NCBI RefSeq assembly: GCF_006345805.1
Contig: NC_043008.1
Span: 35,650,001-35,714,000 of the forward strand
Direction: 5' to 3'
Length of the DNA stretch: 64,000 nt
Source: Octopus sinensis
Taxonomy: Eukaryota
A program made the position numbers and the translations under genes. This document shows positions 17,156 to 62,964 of the stretch, one piece after another. How positions within the stretch are numbered: the stretch's first letter is position 1; every line of letters starts with the position of its first letter. Under the pieces are notes generated by a model. The model worked only from the letters and a program-made list of their open reading frames with translations, did no database searches and had not been told where the DNA came from.

Positions 17156-17815
17156 TCATCATCATCATCGTCATCGTTTAACGTCTGTTTTCCATGCTGG
17201 AATGGGTTGGAGGGTCTGACTGAGTACTGGCAAGCCGGGAGGCTGCAACCAGCTCAAATCTGATCTGGCAAGGTTTCTACAGCTGGATGCCCTTCCTAAC
17301 ACCAACCACTCCAAGAGTGTAGTGGGTGCTTTTTATGTGCCACCAGCATGAGGGCCAGTGAGGCAGCACTGGCATCAATCACACTTGAATGGTGCTTTTT
17401 ACATGCCACCAGCATGAGAGCCAGTCTGGTGGCACTGGCATTGACCATGCTTGAATGATGCTTTTTCATACCACCATCATGGGTGCCAGTCAGGCAGTAC
17501 TGGCATTGGCCATGATAATGATTTCACTTGACTCAACAGGTCTTCTCAAGCACAGCATATTGCTCGACTATTGAAGAGTACTCTGAAAAGGGCCGGTTAT
17601 GCAACACTGGCATTGGTCACGGCTACAATCTCACTTGGCTTGCCGGATCTTTTCAAGCACAGCATATCTCCAAAGGTCTTGGTCACTTGTCATTGCCTCT
17701 GTGAAGCCCAACGTTCGAAGGTCATGCTTCACCACTTCATCCCAGATCTTTCTGGGTCTACCTCTTCTACAGGTTCCCTCCACTGTTACAGCATGACACT
17801 TCTTCACACAGCTCT
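17156..17815 (-). mobile_element. 5'-truncated RTE-clade LINE (ORF C-terminus + 3' UTR + tail)
   Basis: Minus translation RGRPRKIWDEVVKHDLRTLGFTEAMTSDQDLWRYAVLEK; (GAT)n tail. Confidence 0.85.
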
Positions 17816-19520: not shown

Positions 19521-20060
19521 TAGGTGTGGCTGTGTGGTAAGTAGTCTGCTTGCCAACCACATGGTTCCGGGTTCATTCCCACTGCATGGCACCTTGTGCA
19601 AGTGTCTTCTTCTATAGCCTCGGGCTGACCAAAGCCTTGTGAGTAGATTAGGTAGACGGAAACTGAAAGAAGCCTGTCATATATATGTATATATGTGTGT
19701 GTGTAAGTGTGTGTGTGTGTAAGTGTGTGTGTGTGTGCATGTTTGTGTGTCTGTGTTTGTCCCCCCCAACATTGCTTGACAACCGATGGTGGTGTGTTTA
19801 CGTCCCCATAACCTAGCAGTTCGGCAAAAGTGACCGATAGAATAAGTACTAGGCTTACACAGAATAAGTCCTGGGGTCGATTTGCTCGACTAAAACCGGT
19901 GCTCCAGCATGGCCACAGTCAAATGATTGAAACAAGTAAAAGAATAAAAGGTTGCTGTAGGCTTACAAAGAATAAGTCCTGGGGTCGATTTGCTTGACGA
20001 AAGGCGGTGCTCCGGCATGGCCACAGTCAAATGACTGAAACAAGTAAAAGAGTAAAAGAG
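19521..20060 (+). mobile_element. tRNA-derived SINE (family A) with duplicated 3' tail
   Basis: Full SINE to ~19950, then TAGGCTTACAAAGAATAAGTCC...AAAAGAG repeated at 19958-20060. Confidence 0.85.
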
Positions 20061-21842: not shown

Positions 21843-23030
21843 TCATCATCATCATCATCATCGTTTAACGTCCGTTTTCCGCGCTAGCACGGGTTGGACG
21901 TTTCAACCGGGGTCTGGGGAGCCAGGGGCTGCCCCAGGCTCCAGTCTGGTCTGGCAGTGTTTTTACAGCTGGATGCCCTTCCTAACGCCAACCCTCCGCG
22001 AGTGTAGTGGGTGCTTTTTACGTGCCACCTGCACAGGTGCCAGAGGGGTCTGGCATCGGCCACAGTCGGTTGGTGCTTTTTATGGCCACCTGCACAGAGC
22101 CAGTCGGGGCGGTGCTGGCATCGGCCACGTTCGGATGGTGCTTTTTATGTGGGGGGGAGGGTGCAGAAATATAGGGGAGGCACCAGTGGGGAGGGGTGTT
22201 CGGAGTGTTCATGTACTTGACTCAACAGTCTCCTCAAGCACAGCGGGACGATTCTGGATCCGGTTACTTTGAATGGGCAGGGGCTATGCGGAACTGATGC
22301 AGGAAGCGCCCGGGTCTTTGCAGTCACAGCATATCTCCAGAGATCTCGGTCCTTCGCCATTGCCTCAGTGAGGCCCAACGCTCTGAGGTTATGCTTGACT
22401 GCCTCATCCCATGTCTTCCTGGGTCTGGGGGGGAGTCCAGCTGAGAAAGGTTCCACCAGTGAGAAGAGAGGGAGAGAAAGTGGGGGGGTGCAGGTAATAT
22501 AGGGAAGCACCAGCGGGGAAGGTTGGGGTAAGGAGGAACGATGACAGGGAGGGGTTGGAACAGGTTCGTAAGAGATAAAAACGTAGGATATCACGAGGGG
22601 GGGGACTGGAAGGAGATAGCCGGTTGAGGCGGTGACAGATTCAAAACAGGAGGAACGTAAGATCAGTGGGGTGGTTGATGAGCTGCGGCGCTAGCTGCTT
22701 GTCTTGGTGGGGGGAGGTGTAGTACACAGTGAAAGCATGTGAGGAGGAGGGGTAGGAGGGAGAGACACGTAATGGTGGTGGGGAGGAGGAGGGAGGAGGG
22801 CATATCCGGTGTAGATGGTGTGAACAGTGTTCACCGGTATTGGTGGTGGAGGTGGGAAAGGGCAGGAGCACCGCGAATGGCGAAGATCGAATTAAACTTC
22901 GTAGAGAAAGATAAAGATAGGGAAAGCATGGCGAAGATCAAGTTAAACTTCGTAGAGAAAGATAGAGGGTACCTTAAGGGATTAAATTTCGTAGAGAAAG
23001 AATAAGATAGGGAAGGCAAGCTCGTTAGTG
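21841..23030 (-). mobile_element. Young internally deleted RTE-like element (putative 5' UTR joined to ORF C-terminus and 3' UTR)
   Basis: CpG-rich; PRKTWDEAVKHNLRALGLTEAMAKDRDLWRYAV on minus at ~22310-22430; (GAT)n tail at 21841-21862; GC-rich non-coding block 22430-23030. Confidence 0.7.
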
Positions 23031-25432: not shown

Positions 25433-25490
25433 GCAGTGCCCCAGCATGGCCACAGCTCATAAGCTGAAACTAGAATCAATCAATCAATCA
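25433..25490 (+). mobile_element. Extremely 5'-truncated copy of the CR1-group LINE 3' end
   Basis: GTGCCCCAGCATGGCCACAGCTCATAAGCTGAAACTAGAA(TCAA)n is identical to the reverse complement of ~53765-53821. Confidence 0.9.
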
Positions 25491-40555: not shown

Positions 40556-40945
40556 TTAGCATCCTCTTTCCATGCTAGCATGGGTTGGATGTTTCGACTG
40601 GGGTCTGGGAAGCCAGAAGGCTGCACCAGGCCCAGTCTGATCTGGCAATGTTTCTACAGCTGGATGCTCTTCCTAACACCAACCACTCTGTGAGTATAGT
40701 AGGTGCTTTTTACATGCCACCGGCACAGGTGCCAGACGAGGCTGGCAAACGGCCACGGTCGGATGGTGCTTTTTACGTGCCACCGGCACGGGAGCCAGGC
40801 CAGGCTGGCAACGGCCACGATCGGATGGTGCTTTTTACATGCCACTGGCACAGAGGCCCATCGGGGTGGCACTGGCAATGGCCACATTCGGACGGTTCGC
40901 TTACGTGGCACCGGCACTGGTATCACAGCTACAATTTCCATTGAT
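40525..40945 (-). mobile_element. RTE 3' UTR fragment with internal tandem units and (GAT)n tail
   Basis: Same family as 2021-2494, 24584-25088 and 60446-60899. Confidence 0.8.
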
Positions 40946-47751: not shown

Positions 47752-48152
47752 AGGCGCAGGAGTGGCTGTGTGGTAAGTAGCTTGTTTACCGGCCACATGG
47801 CTCCGGGTTCAGTCCCACTGCGTGGCACCGTGGGCAAGTGTCTTCTACTATAGCCTCGGGCCGACCAAAGCTTTGTGAGTGGATTTGGTAGACAGAAACT
47901 GAAAGAAGCCCGTTGTATATATATATATATATATATATATATGCGTGTATGTGTTTGTCCCCCTAGCATTGCTTGACAACCGATGCTGGTGTGTTTATGT
48001 CCCCGTTACTTAGCGGTTCGGCAAAAGAGACCGATAGAATAAGTACTGAGCTTACAAAAGAATAAGTCCCGGGGTCGAGTTGCTCGATTAAAGGCGGTGC
48101 TCCAGCATGGCCGCAGTCAAATGACTGAAACAAGTAAAAGAGAGAAAGAGAA
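47752..48152 (+). mobile_element. tRNA-derived SINE (family A), young copy
   Basis: CpGs retained; tail GGCGGTGCTCCAGCATGGCCGCAGTCAAATGACTGAAACAAGTAAAAGAG. Confidence 0.9.
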
Positions 48153-52448: not shown

Positions 52449-53864
52449 AACAGAGACAGGAGAAACACACACATACACACATAGACACAACAGTCATCTT
52501 TTAGTTTCCATCTACCAAATCCATATCTGGAACAATAGCAAAAGACACTTGCCCAAGGTGCTGCACAGTGGGGCTGAACCCAAGACCACATGGTTGGGAA
52601 GCAAACTTCTTAATTACGCACCCATGAATGATATTAAATGCTTCTCCCCAATTAAGTAAAATGGAGATGATGTTGACGTTATGGCTGGTTGCTTCGTGCT
52701 TTCAAAGACCAGTTAAAGAAAGAAATCCTTTTCTTGAAAAACAGTTTAGGATTTGCATGTTTCTGGGCCTTAACCCAGAAACATGCATGTCCTCAGGTGT
52801 GAATCTTGGCTGGTAGGGGTGCTTGCCTCCCCTTCACAAATATAAGGACACAGAAAATGTGTCAAAGCCGACAAGAAGCGTTCAATGCTTCCTAGGGCTA
52901 AACAGCAGTGGTGTAATTCCCATACGGGACTGTCACGTTAAGTTGACAGTATACAACCACTCTATCACTCCACCACCGCTCATGTCACTTTGAAACATTT
53001 AAAAATTCAATATTTCTGAGTTTAGGATTGGTGACAGAAAAAGCCTCCGGTTGTAAAATCCTTCCTTAATAACTTTCATGGTTATTTAGAAAAATGGATG
53101 TTAAATGAATGAATGAACAAAATATGCATACAAAGGGCATTCTATCAAATTTCACACACAAGATGTTGGTTAATCAAAGATAAAAAGTAAAAGAAACTTA
53201 CTGAAGGAGTTAAACAATGAAACTGAACCCAAAGCATCTAGATTGCAAAACAAAGTCCACAACTGTCCTATGATACCCTACCAGGTTGTTGGAAAATGTT
53301 GGGTACCATGTAAAAAGCACCCAGTCCGATCTGTAAAGTGATTGATTTCAGAAAGGACATCTAGTCGTAAAAAACTCTACCAAAACAGACTTTGCCTGTG
53401 CTGGTGCCACTTAGGTTGGTTCTGGGAATGGCATCCAACCATAAAAACCATGCAAAAGTAGACAGTGGAATTCAGCACAGTCCTCCAGCATATCACTTCC
53501 TGTCAAACCATACCACCCGTGCCAGCATGGTGGACAAATGTTAAATGATGATGATCATCATCATCATCATCATCGTTTAACGTCCGTTCTCCATGCTAGC
53601 ATGGGGATGATAATGATGATGATGCTGATCATGATGGTGATTAGGATGATGATGAAGAAGAACATAATGCTACCATCTCACAGATAGATTTTTGAGTGAT
53701 ATTGTTCAAAGGAAAATGAAAGGTTGTATTGTTCTCTATTATTTGAATTAAAATTTTGCCATTGATTGATTGATTGATTGATTCTAGTTTCAGCTTATGA
53801 GCTGTGGCCATGCTGGGGCACCGCCATTTGGTGTTGCTACTTGGTTTCACTTCATGGAGGCTTT

Positions 53865-56803
53865 CTAGCAACTGCTATTTGGTGAAGTTGGTTCATCTGG
53901 GACACCTGACAGGAAGAGATCCAGCTTCATTTTAAAGACATCTGTATCCACCCCATCCAGGTCTCTCAGGTTCTTTGGGAGGATATTGAAGAGCTGTGGG
54001 CCTCGGAAGCCCAGGCTATCACAGAATCTTGTCCTACATCTTGATGGCAGGTTTGGAGTCCTAGGCACCACGCAGTGGCGCCCAGTTCTGGCATTTGCGT
54101 AACTCTCGATGCCAAAGTTCAGGACACTTCCCTCCAGGATCTTCCAGATGTATATTATGGCATATCTTTCCCGCCTACGCTCCAGGGAATATAATTTTAA
54201 TCTCTTGAGTCTTTCCCAGTAGCTTACATTCTGCATAGAGGCTATCTTCTTTGTGTAGCTTCGTTGGATCGCCTCAAGTTCTGTGATCAACTTGACACTG
54301 GATGGTGACCATAGCTGAGAGCAATAGTCAAAGTGGCTTAGGACAAGTGTCTTCCAGAGGACCATCATGGTTTCTTGTTCTCTTGTTCTAAAGGTTCTAA
54401 GAATCCATCCAGCCAGCCGTCTACATTTCATTGTCAGTTTAGCAACATGTACATGAAAGGTCGCGTCATCACTCATGTGAATACCCAGGTCACGCACTGA
54501 TTGTGCCTCTGGGATTGCAATCCCTCCGGGTCCAGTGTATTCATTGGGTATTGCATTCAGTTTTGCATGCTGATAGTATAAAGCTTGAAACTTTCCAGCA
54601 TTGAACTGCATGCTTTTCTTTTCAGCCCACTTGTATATTTCGTCCAGCTCACATTGCAGGTGTTTAGTGTCCTCAGGGTTCTGTATTGCCTGTGAAACTT
54701 TTGTATCATCTGCATAACTTGTGATTGTGGCTCTCTGCGTGGCTGAGGGCATGTCTGAGAGGGCCATTATGAACAGTAGTGGTCCCAGAACAGTGCCCTG
54801 CGGACACCGCTCACTATTTGTGTGTTAATGGAGGTGGCCCCATTGGCTACTACCACTGACTTCTATCCTTCAGAAAGTCATGAAGCCATTCTCCCAGTTT
54901 TCCAACTATGTTGAGATCATGCAGTTTGTGACATATCATTCCATGATCGACTTTATCAAAGGCCTTTGCAAAGTCGAGATATATCACTTCCACATTTGAG
55001 TGGTTGAGCAGCCGTTTCAGCACCCAGTCATAGTGTTGTAGGAGCTGAGTTAAACAGCTTCTCCCTGGTCGGAAACCATGTTGGGTGTCGGGCAGCAAGT
55101 CATTCTCTTCAAGGAAGGTGATCAGCTTCCTTCTGACTATTCGTTCCATGACCTTGCTGATGTGTGAGGTCAGAGAGATAGGTTTATAGTTCTTGGCTTC
55201 CGCTCTGCTACCTCCTTTATGAATGGGGCATATTTTACCTTCCTTCAGTTTTCCTGGAAGTTTGCCAGCTGCAAGGAAGCTCTGAAGGAGGAACTGCAGT
55301 GGTCTTGCTAGGACTCTCTTACATGCTTTTAGGAGGATTGCCGGGAATCCATCGGGGCCAGTAGCTGAGTCTGTTTTCATTTCATCTATAGCCTTGGTTA
55401 CATCGTCTTCCTTTATATCGATGTAATCTATCGTCGCCGCCTCTGATTTTATATCTGCAGTGGTAAAAAAGTCAGTTGGATTGGTGATTTGGAGATGCCC
55501 AAGGGGTGGAGTGAAAACACTCTTGAATTGCTCATTCAGTATTTCACTTACCCTCATTGGTTTTCCTGTAAGTGTGCCATCCTTTTCGAGGAGTGGCCCT
55601 ATTCTACAGTGCACTGTAGCTGTTTCTTTGGCCATACCTGTAGAAAGCTCTGGGGTTAGATTTTATGTTTTCTATAGCCCAGGCTTCTTTGTCTGCTCTT
55701 TCTTTTCTTTCATGGGAGAGTTGCAGACATTTTTCGATTTCCAACAGTTTTATTTTTAGGCGGGACTTTTCACTGCTTTCAATCTGTTTGTTTAGGCGAT
55801 TTGAAAATTTCGTATGCCGTCTCATTAAAATTTTCCTCTCTCTGGGGATTTTGTTCTTGTGTACAGTGGCCTTTCTCTCTGGGACACATTTGTAGCATAT
55901 GGCTTGCATTACAGACATGAATTGTTGAAGTTTCACGTCGATGTCTGGCGAGGAGAGACATTTAGGCCAGTTTTGTTTGAGGATCTCTTTCTCAATTTGT
56001 TTCCAGTTTGCCTTATGGTAGTTCAAGCTGGAAAGATTTTGAGGGTTTCTTGTAGGCTGCATGTCCGTGCTCTCTTTTGGCCCGTACATGGTCAGCTCTA
56101 TCATGTTGTGATCCGAGAGTAGTGTCGGTGTCACTTTCACATTATGGATGAGATCCATGTCATTTGTGAAGCAGAGATCCAGTGTGTTACCTGCCCTGGT
56201 TGGTTGGAGTATTACCTGCTCCATGTACAGGGTGTTGATGAGGTTCAGGAGGGACCTCGCCTGTCCTCGTTCACATCTTGTCATTCCTGGGAGAGAAAGG
56301 CCCTCGGGCCATCTGACATTGGGCAGATAGAAGTCTCCCATAAGAAGCACACCTATGTGTTGTTCTAATGTGGTTAGAATTTCTTCTATTTTTATAAGGC
56401 AGTCTTCAAACTTGCCCACATGGCTTGGGGCATCTGAAGGGCGATATGTAGCACACACAACTACATCAAGTTGCCTAATATGTACAATTAGTGTGTCACA
56501 CACCGAGTTTGAGTATGACAAGAGGACCTGGGGTGTGAGGTCCTCACGGATGTACATAGCAACACCTCCATGACTCCTTTCTTTCCTGTCGGTCCGTAGT
56601 ACAGCATACTGTGGTATGTGTAACTCCGCATCTGCTATGTCCGGTTTCAGGTGCGTTTCTGTAAGTGCTATGCATAAGGCTTGATTGCATGCAACAAAGT
56701 ATCTCAGGAACGGGATCTTTGTCCTGTTACTGAGTGTTTGCAGTCCTCTGATGTTCAGTAGGAGTATCGAGGTGAGGTGTACGTTGTTGCCGGCGGTGTC
56801 CAT
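53865..56803 (-). pseudogene. LINE ORF2: AP endonuclease + reverse transcriptase, split by single-base frameshifts near 55633, 54856 and 54803
   Basis: EN motifs NIRGL, LTETHL, GDFY, LDL, SDH; RT motifs GPDG, YKPISLTS, QHGFRPGRSC, YLDFAKAFDKVDH, (P)QGTVLGPLLF, YADD, DLG; CR1-like C-terminus LEAIQR..YWERLKRLKLYSLERRR. Confidence 0.92.
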
Positions 56804-57665
56804 CCTGTGTCTGTTTGCTGTGGTGGTCTGGTATATAGTGGGTAGTCCCACCTGCGGGCTTGGGTTTGATGAAGCCAGGTCAGCTGCTGTACAATCTTTT
56901 GTGCCATGCACAAAAAAGATTGTTGCTCAGCAGCTGCTCTTTCGGCAACATCATGTTGGCTGTTTGTGGCGCGCACAACATCTGCGTACCTCCGCTTTGG
57001 GGCAGGTGGTGCATAGTCCATCCCTTTTCTTTGTGTTGATGGTTTGTCCATCTGCCTCGTGTCTCTGTGGCAGGGTCCCCGATGTGCAAAGCGGCAGCCT
57101 GCACCTTCCTTTCCGTGCCAGCAGGAACCTCTCAGGTAGAACATACACACCCGTGTGCGCTGTTTGGTTCCATCCTTTGCGGTTCCACTTCTATTCCTGG
57201 TTGTTTCACTCTTTGGTCCTGCTTGAGCTTTTTCTTTTCCTTTAGCTCTTCCAGTCCTTCTTTTAGTTCTTCTTCCTCCCTCTACCTCTTCACCGGGTTC
57301 TCCGTCTCCATGGCCCTTGCTGCCGGTTGGAGAACTTGCACCTGGGTTCACTTCCCGGGCAGGTTTCTCATTCAAAACCTCCTCCTGGGCGTCCACCAGG
57401 TGGGGTGACTTCTTTCATCGTCTCCATTCTTGCCATCTTTGCCCCGCTCGTTCTCAAAGATGGCATCAAGTGCGCCAATGTGCGACCGTACAAGCGCATA
57501 TGAGCGCACGAATTCCTGTCGCTTTCGCTCCATCTGAGCCGCTGTCCTCTTGTAGCCTCTGCTCTTCAGCGCAGCCGCAATCACCTCGCTAGGGCTATCT
57601 CCGCTGGCGCACTCCCATGCTCGTACGAATAAATCCAGCTCGTCACGTCTCCATGCTCTGGACAT
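56755..57665 (-). pseudogene. LINE ORF1 (~300 aa if one frameshift near 57400 is repaired): Myb/SANT-like domain + CCCH zinc finger
   Basis: N-terminal W-x3-E-x3-F-x3-W..EVIAAALKSRGYKRTAAQMERK..F..Y; CMFYLRGSCWHGKEGAGCRFAH (C-x7-C-x8-C-x3-H); overlaps the start of ORF2. Confidence 0.75.
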
Positions 57666-57726
57666 GCTGGATAATCCGTCTATCCGTTTATCTATCTAAT
57701 TATGTTCGAGAGAAGACAGGATGATA

Positions 57727-58875
57727 TTACGGCTAATTAGAAGATAGAGTACTTGAAAAAGAAATATTAACAATATTAAAGTTTGTGTAAAAACGTTATT
57801 TGGGTAAAAACGTTATTTAATCTTAAGGCTAATTAGGAGATAGAGTATCTGAAAATATATTAGCAATATTAATATTATATAGAGTGTGGTAAAAAACGTT
57901 ATTTAATCTTAAGGCTAATTTGGAGATAGAGTATCTGAAAATATTAGCAATATTAATATTATATTAGAGTGGGTAATATTAACGTTATTTAATTTAATCT
58001 TAAGGCTAATTAGAAGACAGAGTATCTGAAAATATATACAATATTAAGCAATATTAACCGTTATTTAATTTAATCTTAAGGCTAATTAGACGTTATTAAT
58101 ATTAAACGTTATTTAATTTAATCTTAAGGCTAATTAGAAGATAGAGTATCTGAAAATATATTAGCAATATTAATATTATATTAGAGTGTGGATAAAAACG
58201 TTATTTAATCTTAAGGCTAATCAGGAGATAGAGTATCTGAAAATATATTAGCAATGTTAATTTATATTAGAGTGTGGGTAATATTAAACGTTATTTAATT
58301 TAATCTTAAGGCTAATTAGAAGATAGAGTATCTGAAGAATTATTAACAATATTAAACAATATTAAACGTTATTTAATTTAATCTTAAGGCTAATTAACAA
58401 TATTAAACAATTAACGTTATTTAATTTAATCCTAAGGCTAATTAACAATAGTTATAACAATATTAAACAATATTAAACGTTATTTAATTTAATCTTAAGG
58501 CTAATTAACAGTAATTATTAACAATATTAAACAATATTAACGTTATTTAATTTAATCCTAAGGCTAATTAACAATAATTATTAACAATATTAAACGTTAT
58601 TTAATTAATCCTAAGGCTAATTAGACGTTATTAATATTAAACGTTATTTAATTTAATCTTAAGGCTAATTAGAAGATAGAGTATCTGAAAAATTATTAAC
58701 AATATTAAACGTTATTTAATTTAATCTTAAGGCTAATTAACAATAATTATTAACAATATTAAACAATATTAAACGTTATTTAATTTAATCCTAAGGCTAA
58801 TTTGACGGTATCAATATTAAACGTTATTTAATTTAATCTTAAGGCTAATTAGAAGATAGAGTATCTGGAAAATTA
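57727..58875. repeat. Modular AT-rich tandem array in the LINE 5' leader
   Basis: 17 copies of GGCTAAT by eye, core AACGTTATTTAA(TTTAA)TCYTAAGGCTAATT, spacing ~48-96 bp. Confidence 0.92.
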
Positions 58876-59297
58876 TTATATCGAGAACAGTTATTGAAAA
58901 TGTAAACAAACCAAATGACGATCGCAACTTTAACTAAGATGTGGGCCTAAGTGAAAGATAAAATAGAATAATAAATAAAATATGAAATAGATGAAATTGA
59001 TACTTAATCCAACAATGTGGTCTGGATTATTTTTTTTTTGGTTTACGGGATTTTTTCAGGAGAGATGCTTCTTTTTTCTTTCTTGCAGGAGATAACTTGA
59101 TTCAGTTATTTTTGCACCATGTGCGTTTCGGCGAAAATGAAAATTACTGTGTATATGTATATATTTATATATATATTTTTAAAAATATTTTTAACCAAAG
59201 TGTTGTAGTGATCTCTATGACTTAGAGTTTTACGTTTTGCAACTACAGTGGGTTATTTCGCCGTTCTATGCAGACTTTTTCACAGAGCAAAGGCAAT

Positions 59298-59716: not shown

Positions 59717-60072
59717 AGAAAAAGTTAAGGTAGAAAACGCTGAAATAATTTTATCATAAAAAATATTTTAGTACCGGTTTCAGTCATTGGGACTTTTTCA
59801 ACTCTTCAAATATGGAAGACAAATTTTGGAAAAATTAAATGCAAAGTTTTTTAAAAAAGATATCTGCATATTATTCAAATACAAGGGGCATTTTCCTAGT
59901 ATTTGAATACTATGAAAATATTCTTTTGAAACACTTTACATTTAATTTTTCCAAAATTTAATTGTTTTCCATACTTAGAGTTGAAAAAGTCTCAATGACT
60001 GAAACCGGTACTAAAATGTTTTTTATAAAAAAATTATTTTAGCATTTTCTACCTTGACATTTTTACCTTATA
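59712..60072. repeat. Fold-back element (~170-bp arms), each arm with a variant hammerhead-like core
   Basis: Plus 59981-60010 TTGAAAA-AGTC[TCAAT]GACT-GAAA-CCGGT-A; mirrored on minus at ~59771-59800; flanked by TG/TA tracts. Confidence 0.75.
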
Positions 60073-60445: not shown

Positions 60446-60483
<38 letters not shown>

Positions 60484-60899
60484 GTTTAACGTCCACTTTC
60501 CATGCTAGCATGGGTTGGACGATTTGACTGAGGACTGGCGAACCAGATGGCTGCGCCAGGCTCCAATCTGATCTGGCAGAGTTTCTACAGCTTGATGCCC
60601 TTCCTAACGCCAGCCACTCCGAGAGTGTAGTGGGTGCTTTTAAAGTGCTACCGGCATTAGGGCCAGTCTGGTGGTACTGGCAATGGCCACGCTCGAAAAT
60701 GGTTTTTTTTACATTTCACCTGTACAGGAGCCAGTCCAGCAGCACTGGCAATGACCTCACTCAAATGTTTTGTTCACATGCCAGTGAGGGAACGCTGACA
60801 ACGATCACGCTCAAGTGGTGCTCTTTACGTGCCAGACAGCTGCTCTGGCAGTGATCCTGCTTGGATGGAGCTGTTAGCGCTCCACTGGCATGGGTGCCT
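60446..60899 (-). mobile_element. RTE 3' UTR fragment with (GAT)n tail
   Basis: Same family tail. Confidence 0.8.
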
Positions 60900-60911
60900 A
60901 TATATATATAT

Positions 60912-61158
60912 ATTAAAATTATACCTCCACGCTAGAAATAGTAGCCAAAACTTGACTCTAAAACCACATTAAATGTTCATACAGCACTAGGAGAGAAGAC
61001 AAAAGGACAAGATGAACTAGCAAAAAATTACTGGCATGCATATAATTGCATATTTCTCCTAGTGCTGTATGAACATTTAATGTGGGTTTAGAGTCAGGTT
61101 TTGGCTGCTATTTCCAGCGTGGAGGTATCCCTTAGATACCCTAAATTATAATTTTAAT
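60912..61158. repeat. Inverted repeat (~75-bp arms) next to (TA)n
   Basis: 60919-60993 is the reverse complement of 61055-61128; outer TTAAAATTATA / TATAATTTTAA. Confidence 0.85.
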
Positions 61159-61182
61159 AATAATTATTACCTTTGAAGGTTT

Positions 61183-61599
61183 AGGCACAGGAGTGGCTGT
61201 GTGGTAAGTAGCTTGCTTACGAACCACATGGTTCCGGGTTCAGTCCCACTGCGTGGCATCTTGGGCAAGTGTCTTCTGATATAGCCTCGGGCTGACCAAA
61301 GCCTTGTGAGTGGATTTGGTAGACAGAAACTGAAAGAAGCCTGTCGTATATATGTATATATATATGTATGTGTGTGTATATGTTTGTGTGTCTGTGTTTG
61401 TCCCTCTAGCATTGCTTGACAACCGATGCTGGTGTGTTTACGTCCCCATCACTTAGCGGTTCGGCAAAAGAGACCGATAGAATAAGTACTGGGCTTACAA
61501 AGAATAAGTCCCGGGGTCGATTTGCTCGACTAAAGGCGGTGCTCCAGCATGGCTGCAGTCAAATGACTGAAACAAGTAAAAGAGTAAAAGAGTAAAAGA

Positions 61600-61636: not shown

Positions 61637-62964
61637 GTGCCCAAGATGTCATGCAGTGGAACTGAACCCCAAGCTACATGGTTAAGAAGCAAATTTCTTA
61701 CTACATAGCCACATCTGCACCTATGTAGAATTGATTTTTTCTTTTTTTGTTCTGTAGAGAAATATAAGAGAAGCACCATTAATTCTGTCACCAGGGATAC
61801 AGGTGTTACTGTGTCCATTATTGAAATTATTGAAGTTATTGAAATTATTTTTTTAAAATTTCTTATATGTTAATAATACATTAGAAATAATATTTTTAAG
61901 TAGGAGATTTAGTTTTGTTAAGCTGATCAATAAATTTCAGCAGTTCTAATAGATTATTTATCATTACCATTCTGGATTTGATGTTAGTGAAACAAGATTC
62001 ACTCTGCCACAGTTAAAATCCTAGTTTTTCTCTCCTAAGAAATTTAAATATCTCAGGTCTGTATTCATGAGTGATGGAAGGCAGAGGGCTGAATTACATG
62101 TTAGAATTACAGGTGCTTGCAGACACACACACACACACACAGAGACACACACACATGCGCTCACACATACGCTAACACACATACACACACAGCAGTTTTT
62201 ATTTTGGTTTCTGCCTTCCAGATTCACTCACAAGGCTTTGGTTGGCCATGAGATGGAAGGGCATCCTGGCATTAGGAAGGGCATCCAGCTGTAGAAACAC
62301 TGCCAGATCAGACTGGAGCCTGGTGCAGCCTTCTGGCTTCCTAGATCCCCAGTCGAACCGTCCAACCCATGCTAGCATGGAGAACGGACGTTAAACAATG
62401 ATGATGATTTCCCTGAGGAGCTGTGCTGTGGGACAGAACCCAAAATCTTATGGTTGAGAAGGAAACATCTTAACCTCACAACCAGTCCTTCACACACATG
62501 CATGTCTGTATGTCATTGTCCAGTTTTATTTCAAGATTTCTTGCCAATAGAGAAAGAGCCGGTTTCTAACCTAGATTCAAGGCTCCTTCATAGGAATTTC
62601 AACATCAACAGGGTATTTTTGTTTGTTTGTTTGTTTGTTTGTTTGTTTGTATGTATGTATGTATGTATGTATGTATGTATGTATGTATGTATGTATGTAT
62701 GTATGTATGCATGTATGCATGTGTGTGTGCAGATTTGTATGATTTGTTTTATGTATGCATTCTCATGCATATAGTTGCATCTCTAGACATGCTCATATAT
62801 ATTTAAATGATAAACTTCTGGAAAGTTTTACAGATTTTTACAGTTCCGGTGATGGATTGGATCTGTAGTCTTCAAATTAGCTTTCTCCTTTCTGGTTTTG
62901 AGAAGCCTAATTTCTCAAGATTGGTATTTAGGCAGTATGCTACATATCCCAGGGCCCCATACAT

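Follow-up and report, generated by a model that had tools for sequence, protein, structure and literature searches.

In the genome of Octopus sinensis, we found a long interspersed nuclear element (LINE) whose first open reading frame, ORF1, encodes a protein (ORF1p) with a Myb/SANT-like domain at its N terminus and a CCCH zinc finger further on, an apparently undescribed architecture within a known LINE group. The element lies in a 64-kb stretch of contig NC_043008.1 (positions 35,650,001 to 35,714,000, assembly GCF_006345805.1), the whole of which is referred to below as the window, and an array of 17 repeat units stands directly before its ORF1. To the explanation that we favor we assign about an even chance: this would be a young, high-copy octopus LINE, likely of the CR1 clade, in which the finger likely binds the element's own RNA and the predicted Myb domain probably anchors the particle to DNA or chromatin of the host and not to its own array.

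ORF1 starts at the ATG at 57665 on the minus strand, and its first residues follow the Myb/SANT-like pattern quoted in an earlier, first-pass annotation of the window. The Pfam check suggested there gave a mixed answer: Myb_DNA-bind_4 matched at E 7.9e-4, but the score of 20.2 bits is under the 27-bit gathering cut-off. Twenty-one relatives were found; four close ones score 13.5 to 17.9 bits against this profile, and 5 of the 21 reach E ≤ 0.1, including a distant protein of 1,114 amino acids. The latter, P0018, has about five Myb/SANT-like repeats and is the sole relative over the Pfam cut-off (E 1e-4 to the query). It is a possible lead to the origin of the domain, with hhalign giving only 4.7%. 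Structure prediction agreed with the annotation, yielding a confident three-helix model that superposes on Myb/SANT structures, and Myb/SANT-type domains head the list of fold matches. The best matches mix DNA binders with SANT domains that have no known DNA binding, and Foldseek returned no match to the predicted domain at E ≤ 1e-3.

Myb/SANT domains by consensus have a conserved tryptophan in each helix. Among the alignment rows, 11 of 14 have W5 and 14 of 16 have W17; helices 2 and 3 keep no tryptophan, and Y56 is invariant (19/19). Compared with the trihelix GT-1, Zeste, DNAJC2 SANT and TEAD domains, identity is 9 to 22%, and ORF1 differs by its missing tryptophans in helices 2 and 3 and its place under the Pfam cut-off. 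Mean pairwise identity over 19 rows is 0.50 for residues 38-62 versus 0.37, 0.32 and 0.14 elsewhere, and helix 3 is basic, with 7 K/R versus 2 D/E at residues 38-60. Helix 3 is a candidate DNA or chromatin contact of ORF1p.

ORF1 is one protein in this family, and the Myb/SANT-like domain belongs to it and is no artefact of decay. In the window copy, the frame is split into a Myb piece of 97 amino acids and a second piece of 219 amino acids (stop to stop) by one base missing from the G run at 57402-57405. Contig evidence on the family comes from 4 of the 24 listed runs (X1, X2, X3 and X8), and the summed contig depth given here and below is not a copy number. The extra base accounts for 120809 of a depth of 203223 in X1 (16 contigs), 125621 of 176357 in X8 (11 contigs) and 12.1 of 41.5 in X2 (1 contig), but in X3 its share is just 1179 of 34684 (5 contigs), and a loose end there, at 57405, shows this base as well. 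An intact natural protein of 371 amino acids from an ENA record, P0006, matches both frames and aligns to residues 8-300 of the read-through ORF1 (E 2.5e-49). A single chain of this protein holds the Myb domain, the finger and also the C-terminal helix, which is the part that overlaps ORF2. In P0021 and P0005 of Octopus vulgaris, the Myb part is joined to an intact or degenerate finger. Identity to P0006 is high in the helix-3 region (17/24), the finger (13/23) and the C-terminal helix (21/34) and low in the linker (12/68), a pattern of purifying selection. P0001, P0002, P0003, P0005, P0008, P0014 and P0021 are ORF1 fragments of related subfamilies that stand in databases as hypothetical or uncharacterised Octopus genes.

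The finger, at 57082-57147, had escaped the first-pass annotation. Its profile matches fall below the cut-offs (Torus, E 1.6e-5, 25.8 versus 29 bits; zf-CCCH, E 0.0036, 17.6 versus 20.5 bits). Three cysteines and one histidine are conserved at an atypical spacing, and the predicted local distance difference test score is only about 50 to 58. CCCH fingers are modules that usually bind RNA, and since ORF1p has one, its RNA role is not given up. The C-terminal helix possibly serves oligomerization. No Pfam match to RRM, CCHC, PHD, esterase or transposase-22 was found in either window ORF1 piece or in any of the relatives (21/21), and the P0006 model contains helices and the finger only.

The array reported upstream of ORF1 is indeed there and has 17 units. 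Seventeen TTAGCC-anchored cores run from 58848 to 57736 in units of 48 to 96 nt, the last of them about 66 to 71 nt upstream of the ATG, and a near-identical core of 22 to 27 nt is kept in 16 of the 17 units as four variants. The array contains 16 occurrences of GGCTAATT, which is found nowhere in the rest of the window; TAACGTT occurs 19 times versus once elsewhere in the window. GC content is 21% in the array versus 48% in the element body. No ORF of at least 70 amino acids lies on the element strand inside the array or the leader that precedes it. The array also contains 16 TAATCC/TAATCT and 18 TAATTA words, counted without a control in AT-rich DNA, which we take to be homeodomain sites by their consensus.

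At least one further copy has the array linked to ORF1, as the first-pass reading needed. Record 15 of run X2 corresponds to 57253-57837 with 4 differences and 1 gap and thus spans the linker, Myb domain, spacer and first units; its final 77 letters appear to map to another array unit (depth 9.22 = 12.1 × 77/101). At 57722 and 57730, the entire depth in three runs disagrees with the window copy, whose letters there are thus private, while the junction itself is family sequence. Multicopy depth is unbroken across the array and the unique leader up to 59127, and unit counts differ in other copies, as seen from contig joints that connect 58198 with 57801 and 58915 with 58262, among others.

Under the favored explanation, the array would be a 5' untranslated region (UTR) promoter with a variable number of monomers, driven by host factors. 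Mouse L1 would be the model, in which tandem 5' monomer arrays serve as promoters (PMC5381506). ORF1p would be translated from a bicistronic RNA and coat that RNA in cis through its finger and basic linker, perhaps oligomerizing via the C-terminal helix, and helix 3 of the Myb domain would contact DNA or chromatin. The domain would then occupy the N-terminal slot that is held in many other CR1/L2 ORF1s by PHD, a chromatin reader (PMC4120745, Table 1). A constant host ligand suits the Myb domain because its helix is conserved across relatives that are only about 30 to 53% identical, whereas the 5' UTRs of L1 elements have little homology to one another and frequently get exchanged (PMC5381506). 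R2 applies a Myb domain to target DNA (PMC12503042).

We prefer a host-DNA tether to self-recognition, the proposal of the first-pass annotation, which we consider unlikely. Nuclear ORF1p would in that case bind its own array core through the Myb domain and boost, repress or shield the promoter in a Harbinger-like manner. In its boldest form, the octopus LINE would have captured a Harbinger- or trihelix-type domain into ORF1 and co-evolved a 5' array of sites for it, so that it would encode its own transcription factor and tune its expression by array length, a scenario that we hold to be just as unlikely. The likeness of the domain to GT-1 and Zeste and the palindromic, strongly kept array core argue for self-recognition, but host factors could explain the array through its presumed homeodomain-like words, subject to the same lack of a control in AT-rich DNA. 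Harbinger3_DR offers a precedent, its Myb-like protein binding a subterminal motif of its element (PMC9710019), although Harbinger cut-and-paste would need bound DNA ends and a LINE would not. What stood of the proposal is that the Myb domain is part of the family ORF1, that the array is linked to it and that none of the ORF1 surveys searched contains this architecture. The co-occurrence of array and domain is weak evidence, because mouse L1 also has tandem units at its 5' end (PMC5381506), as do elements of the CR1 group that lack an ORF1 (PMC13343379, section 15). A protein/site feedback loop of this kind was not described for LINEs in the literature searched.

Somewhat more doubtful still is a role of the Myb-like domain in binding RNA, or RNA/DNA intermediates, in place of the missing RRM, ORF1p being an ordinary RNA chaperone made from new parts. 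The lack of RRM and the other module matches in both ORF1 pieces, the missing tryptophan in helix 3 and the presence of the Cdc5 Myb ("two distinct nucleic acid-binding surfaces") and spliceosome chains at ranks 25, 43 and 48 of the fold list are consistent with this. However, ORF1p already has a CCCH finger for RNA, DNA-binding or SANT domains rank higher in the list, and the array RNA folds no more than its shuffles (z 0.01). A SANT-type protein-protein module, which would help ORF1p to enter the nucleus or to counter silencing by contacting ORF2p, histone tails or chromatin enzymes, is improbable, given that histone-binding SANT surfaces are acidic and helix 3 is basic. Least credible by far is that the array and Myb piece are a separate repeat or DNA transposon abutting a LINE copy: neither the 5' end of the LINE nor a target-site duplication was found and no single listed contig covers the whole stretch, but P0006 holds all three ORF1 parts in one chain, record 15 bridges linker to array, and depth in the leader (28k-108k) is not above that in the Myb region (49k-147k).

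The element is a LINE, an APE-type retrotransposon without long terminal repeats, as judged from APE followed by reverse transcriptase (RT), a simple-repeat tail and 5' depletion. Its ORF2, which overlaps the end of ORF1 by 49 nt, matches Exo_endo_phos_2 (E 1.2e-9) and, in two pieces, RVT_1 (E 3.4e-14 and 4.1e-10). No RNase H was detected (at E ≤ 1, RVT_1 was the sole match in the C-terminal piece), nor a CCHC knuckle in the translation. Membership in the CR1 clade is likely, on the basis of these absences and of ORF2 motifs that we take to be CR1-like, rather than of a tree.

Like CR1-lineage LINEs of the Jockey superfamily, the element has two ORFs, APE and RT in ORF2, a short 3' UTR with hairpins and a microsatellite tail (PMC4120745). 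ORF1s of this lineage have been sorted into types I to V, whose modules get shuffled (Khazina & Weichenrieder; Metcalfe & Casane 2014, PMC4120745). The octopus ORF1 fits none of the CR1/L2/Jockey types I to IV, and its combination of Myb/trihelix-like domain, CCCH finger and helix is not in Table 1 of that paper. CR1-Zenon lacks ORF1 and ends in poly(A) by its published definition (PMC13343379, section 15), in contrast to the ORF1 and (AATC)n tail found here, so the element is not Zenon. Variable-number tandem units before the first ORF are shared with mouse and rat L1 (PMC5381506) and with the ORF1-less CR1 group (PMC13343379), but the octopus array has more units (17), which are short (48-96 nt) and rich in AT (21% GC).

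PIF/Harbinger accessory proteins with a Myb/SANT/MADF domain (Harbinger3_DR; PMC9710019) resemble ORF1p in their N-terminal Myb/trihelix-like domain, their length of about 300 to 400 amino acids and the repeated motifs near the element end. Unlike them, ORF1p has a CCCH finger and is partnered by RT/endonuclease and not by a DDE transposase. No terminal inverted repeats, a PIF/Harbinger feature, were found for the octopus LINE, and identity as a PIF/Harbinger DNA transposon was rejected on the gene downstream of the Myb domain, which is APE-RT. TRAS1, a non-LTR retrotransposon, has a Myb-like region in its RT-containing protein. R2, also a non-LTR retrotransposon, has a Myb domain that is part of the same protein as the RT and recognises a fixed target site (PMC12503042), whereas the octopus domain is in a separate ORF1.

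The terms myb, SANT and CCCH were absent from the accessible text and three supplements of PMC4120745, and myb and CCCH from the accessible text and one supplement of PMC13343379 and from the texts of PMC5203782, PMC9115989, PMC11203168 and PMC10294476; PMC9115989 reports RTE and Dong elements in octopus. Full-text literature searches, the scope of which ended short of subscription journals, Repbase, Dfam and bioRxiv supplements, gave no LINE ORF1 with a Myb or CCCH domain among the matches listed.

Table 1. Parts of the octopus LINE, in window coordinates
Feature	Position	Strand	Remarks
LINE copy, full-length or nearly so	53761..59128	-	5' end at or beyond 59128
Non-repetitive 5' leader, multicopy	58881..59128	-	Overlapping contigs bridge leader to array (records 16, 24, 32)
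AT-rich array of 17 cores, likely 5' UTR/promoter	57720..58880	-	Unit number differs among copies
ORF1, 303 amino acids read through with X at sole break	56755..57665	-	Collinear with intact P0006 (E 2.5e-49)
Myb/SANT/trihelix-like domain, residues 1-76	57438..57665	-	Predicted helices 7-19, 25-35, 42-76
CCCH zinc finger, C-x7-C-x8-C-x3-H, residues 174-195	57082..57147	-	Same motif in P0006, P0021, P0022
Conserved C-terminal amphipathic helix	56860..56946	-	P0006 H295-335; 21/34 identical to P0006
ORF2, APE endonuclease and RT	53865..56803	-	Frame breaks near 55635, 54857, 54803
Short 3' UTR	53784..53864	-	Two hairpins predicted in the final ~40 nt, which a SINE family in the window shares
(AATC)n microsatellite tail, not poly(A)	53761..53783	-	

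The window copy is dead, with one frame break in ORF1 and at least three in ORF2. No target-site duplication of at least 9 bases was found near its presumed 5' end, which is not fixed. Summed contig depth over the LINE is 1e4 to 1e6, versus 25 to 200 for single listed contigs, and 5411 of 7176 X1 contigs are at least 95% alike, so the family is young and abundant. Depth declines from about 6e5 in the endonuclease to about 1e5 in the Myb region. A copy of the 3' end only, 58 bp long and 98% identical with its tail included, sits within a (TA)n tract at 25433-25490.

The 3' end of the LINE (53784-53828) is about 83% identical to the 3' ends of a family of short interspersed nuclear elements (SINEs) at 61530-61575, 20000-20044 and 48090-48134. 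The same two hairpins are predicted for the LINE and SINE ends (z -2.7 and -1.3), and compensatory changes are present in the second. The SINE family likely has this LINE, or one related to it, as its partner; sharing of tails between LINEs and SINEs is known in molluscs (PMC4824008, PMC4758252, PMC11481361).

Other repeats in the window include two elements resembling miniature inverted-repeat transposable elements, at 59719-60063 and 60921-61128, whose inverted arms are long (87 nt, 91% and 74 nt, 95%, respectively). Further interspersed repeats occur as inverted copies (60472-60613 versus 62266-62408; 61182-61338 versus 61638-61723 and 62199-62247), some of them with (ATC)n tails or SINE-like heads. 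Three related tandem arrays of 62- to 66-bp units beginning GGTGCTTTT (17325-17506, 22010-22151 and 40702-40853) are likely internal minisatellites of another repeat family.

The roles of ORF1 proteins beyond RNA coating are still open, and their known modules (RRM, CCHC, PHD, esterase and transposase-22) include no Myb-type fold. Octopus subfamilies that have diverged from one another conserve the Myb-CCCH form of ORF1, which adds a new type to this list. Because the domain is small and soluble and there is an obvious candidate site, DNA binding by ORF1p is directly testable. If ORF1p did read the array of its element, a LINE would encode a transcription factor and, with each full-length copy, spread the sites for it.
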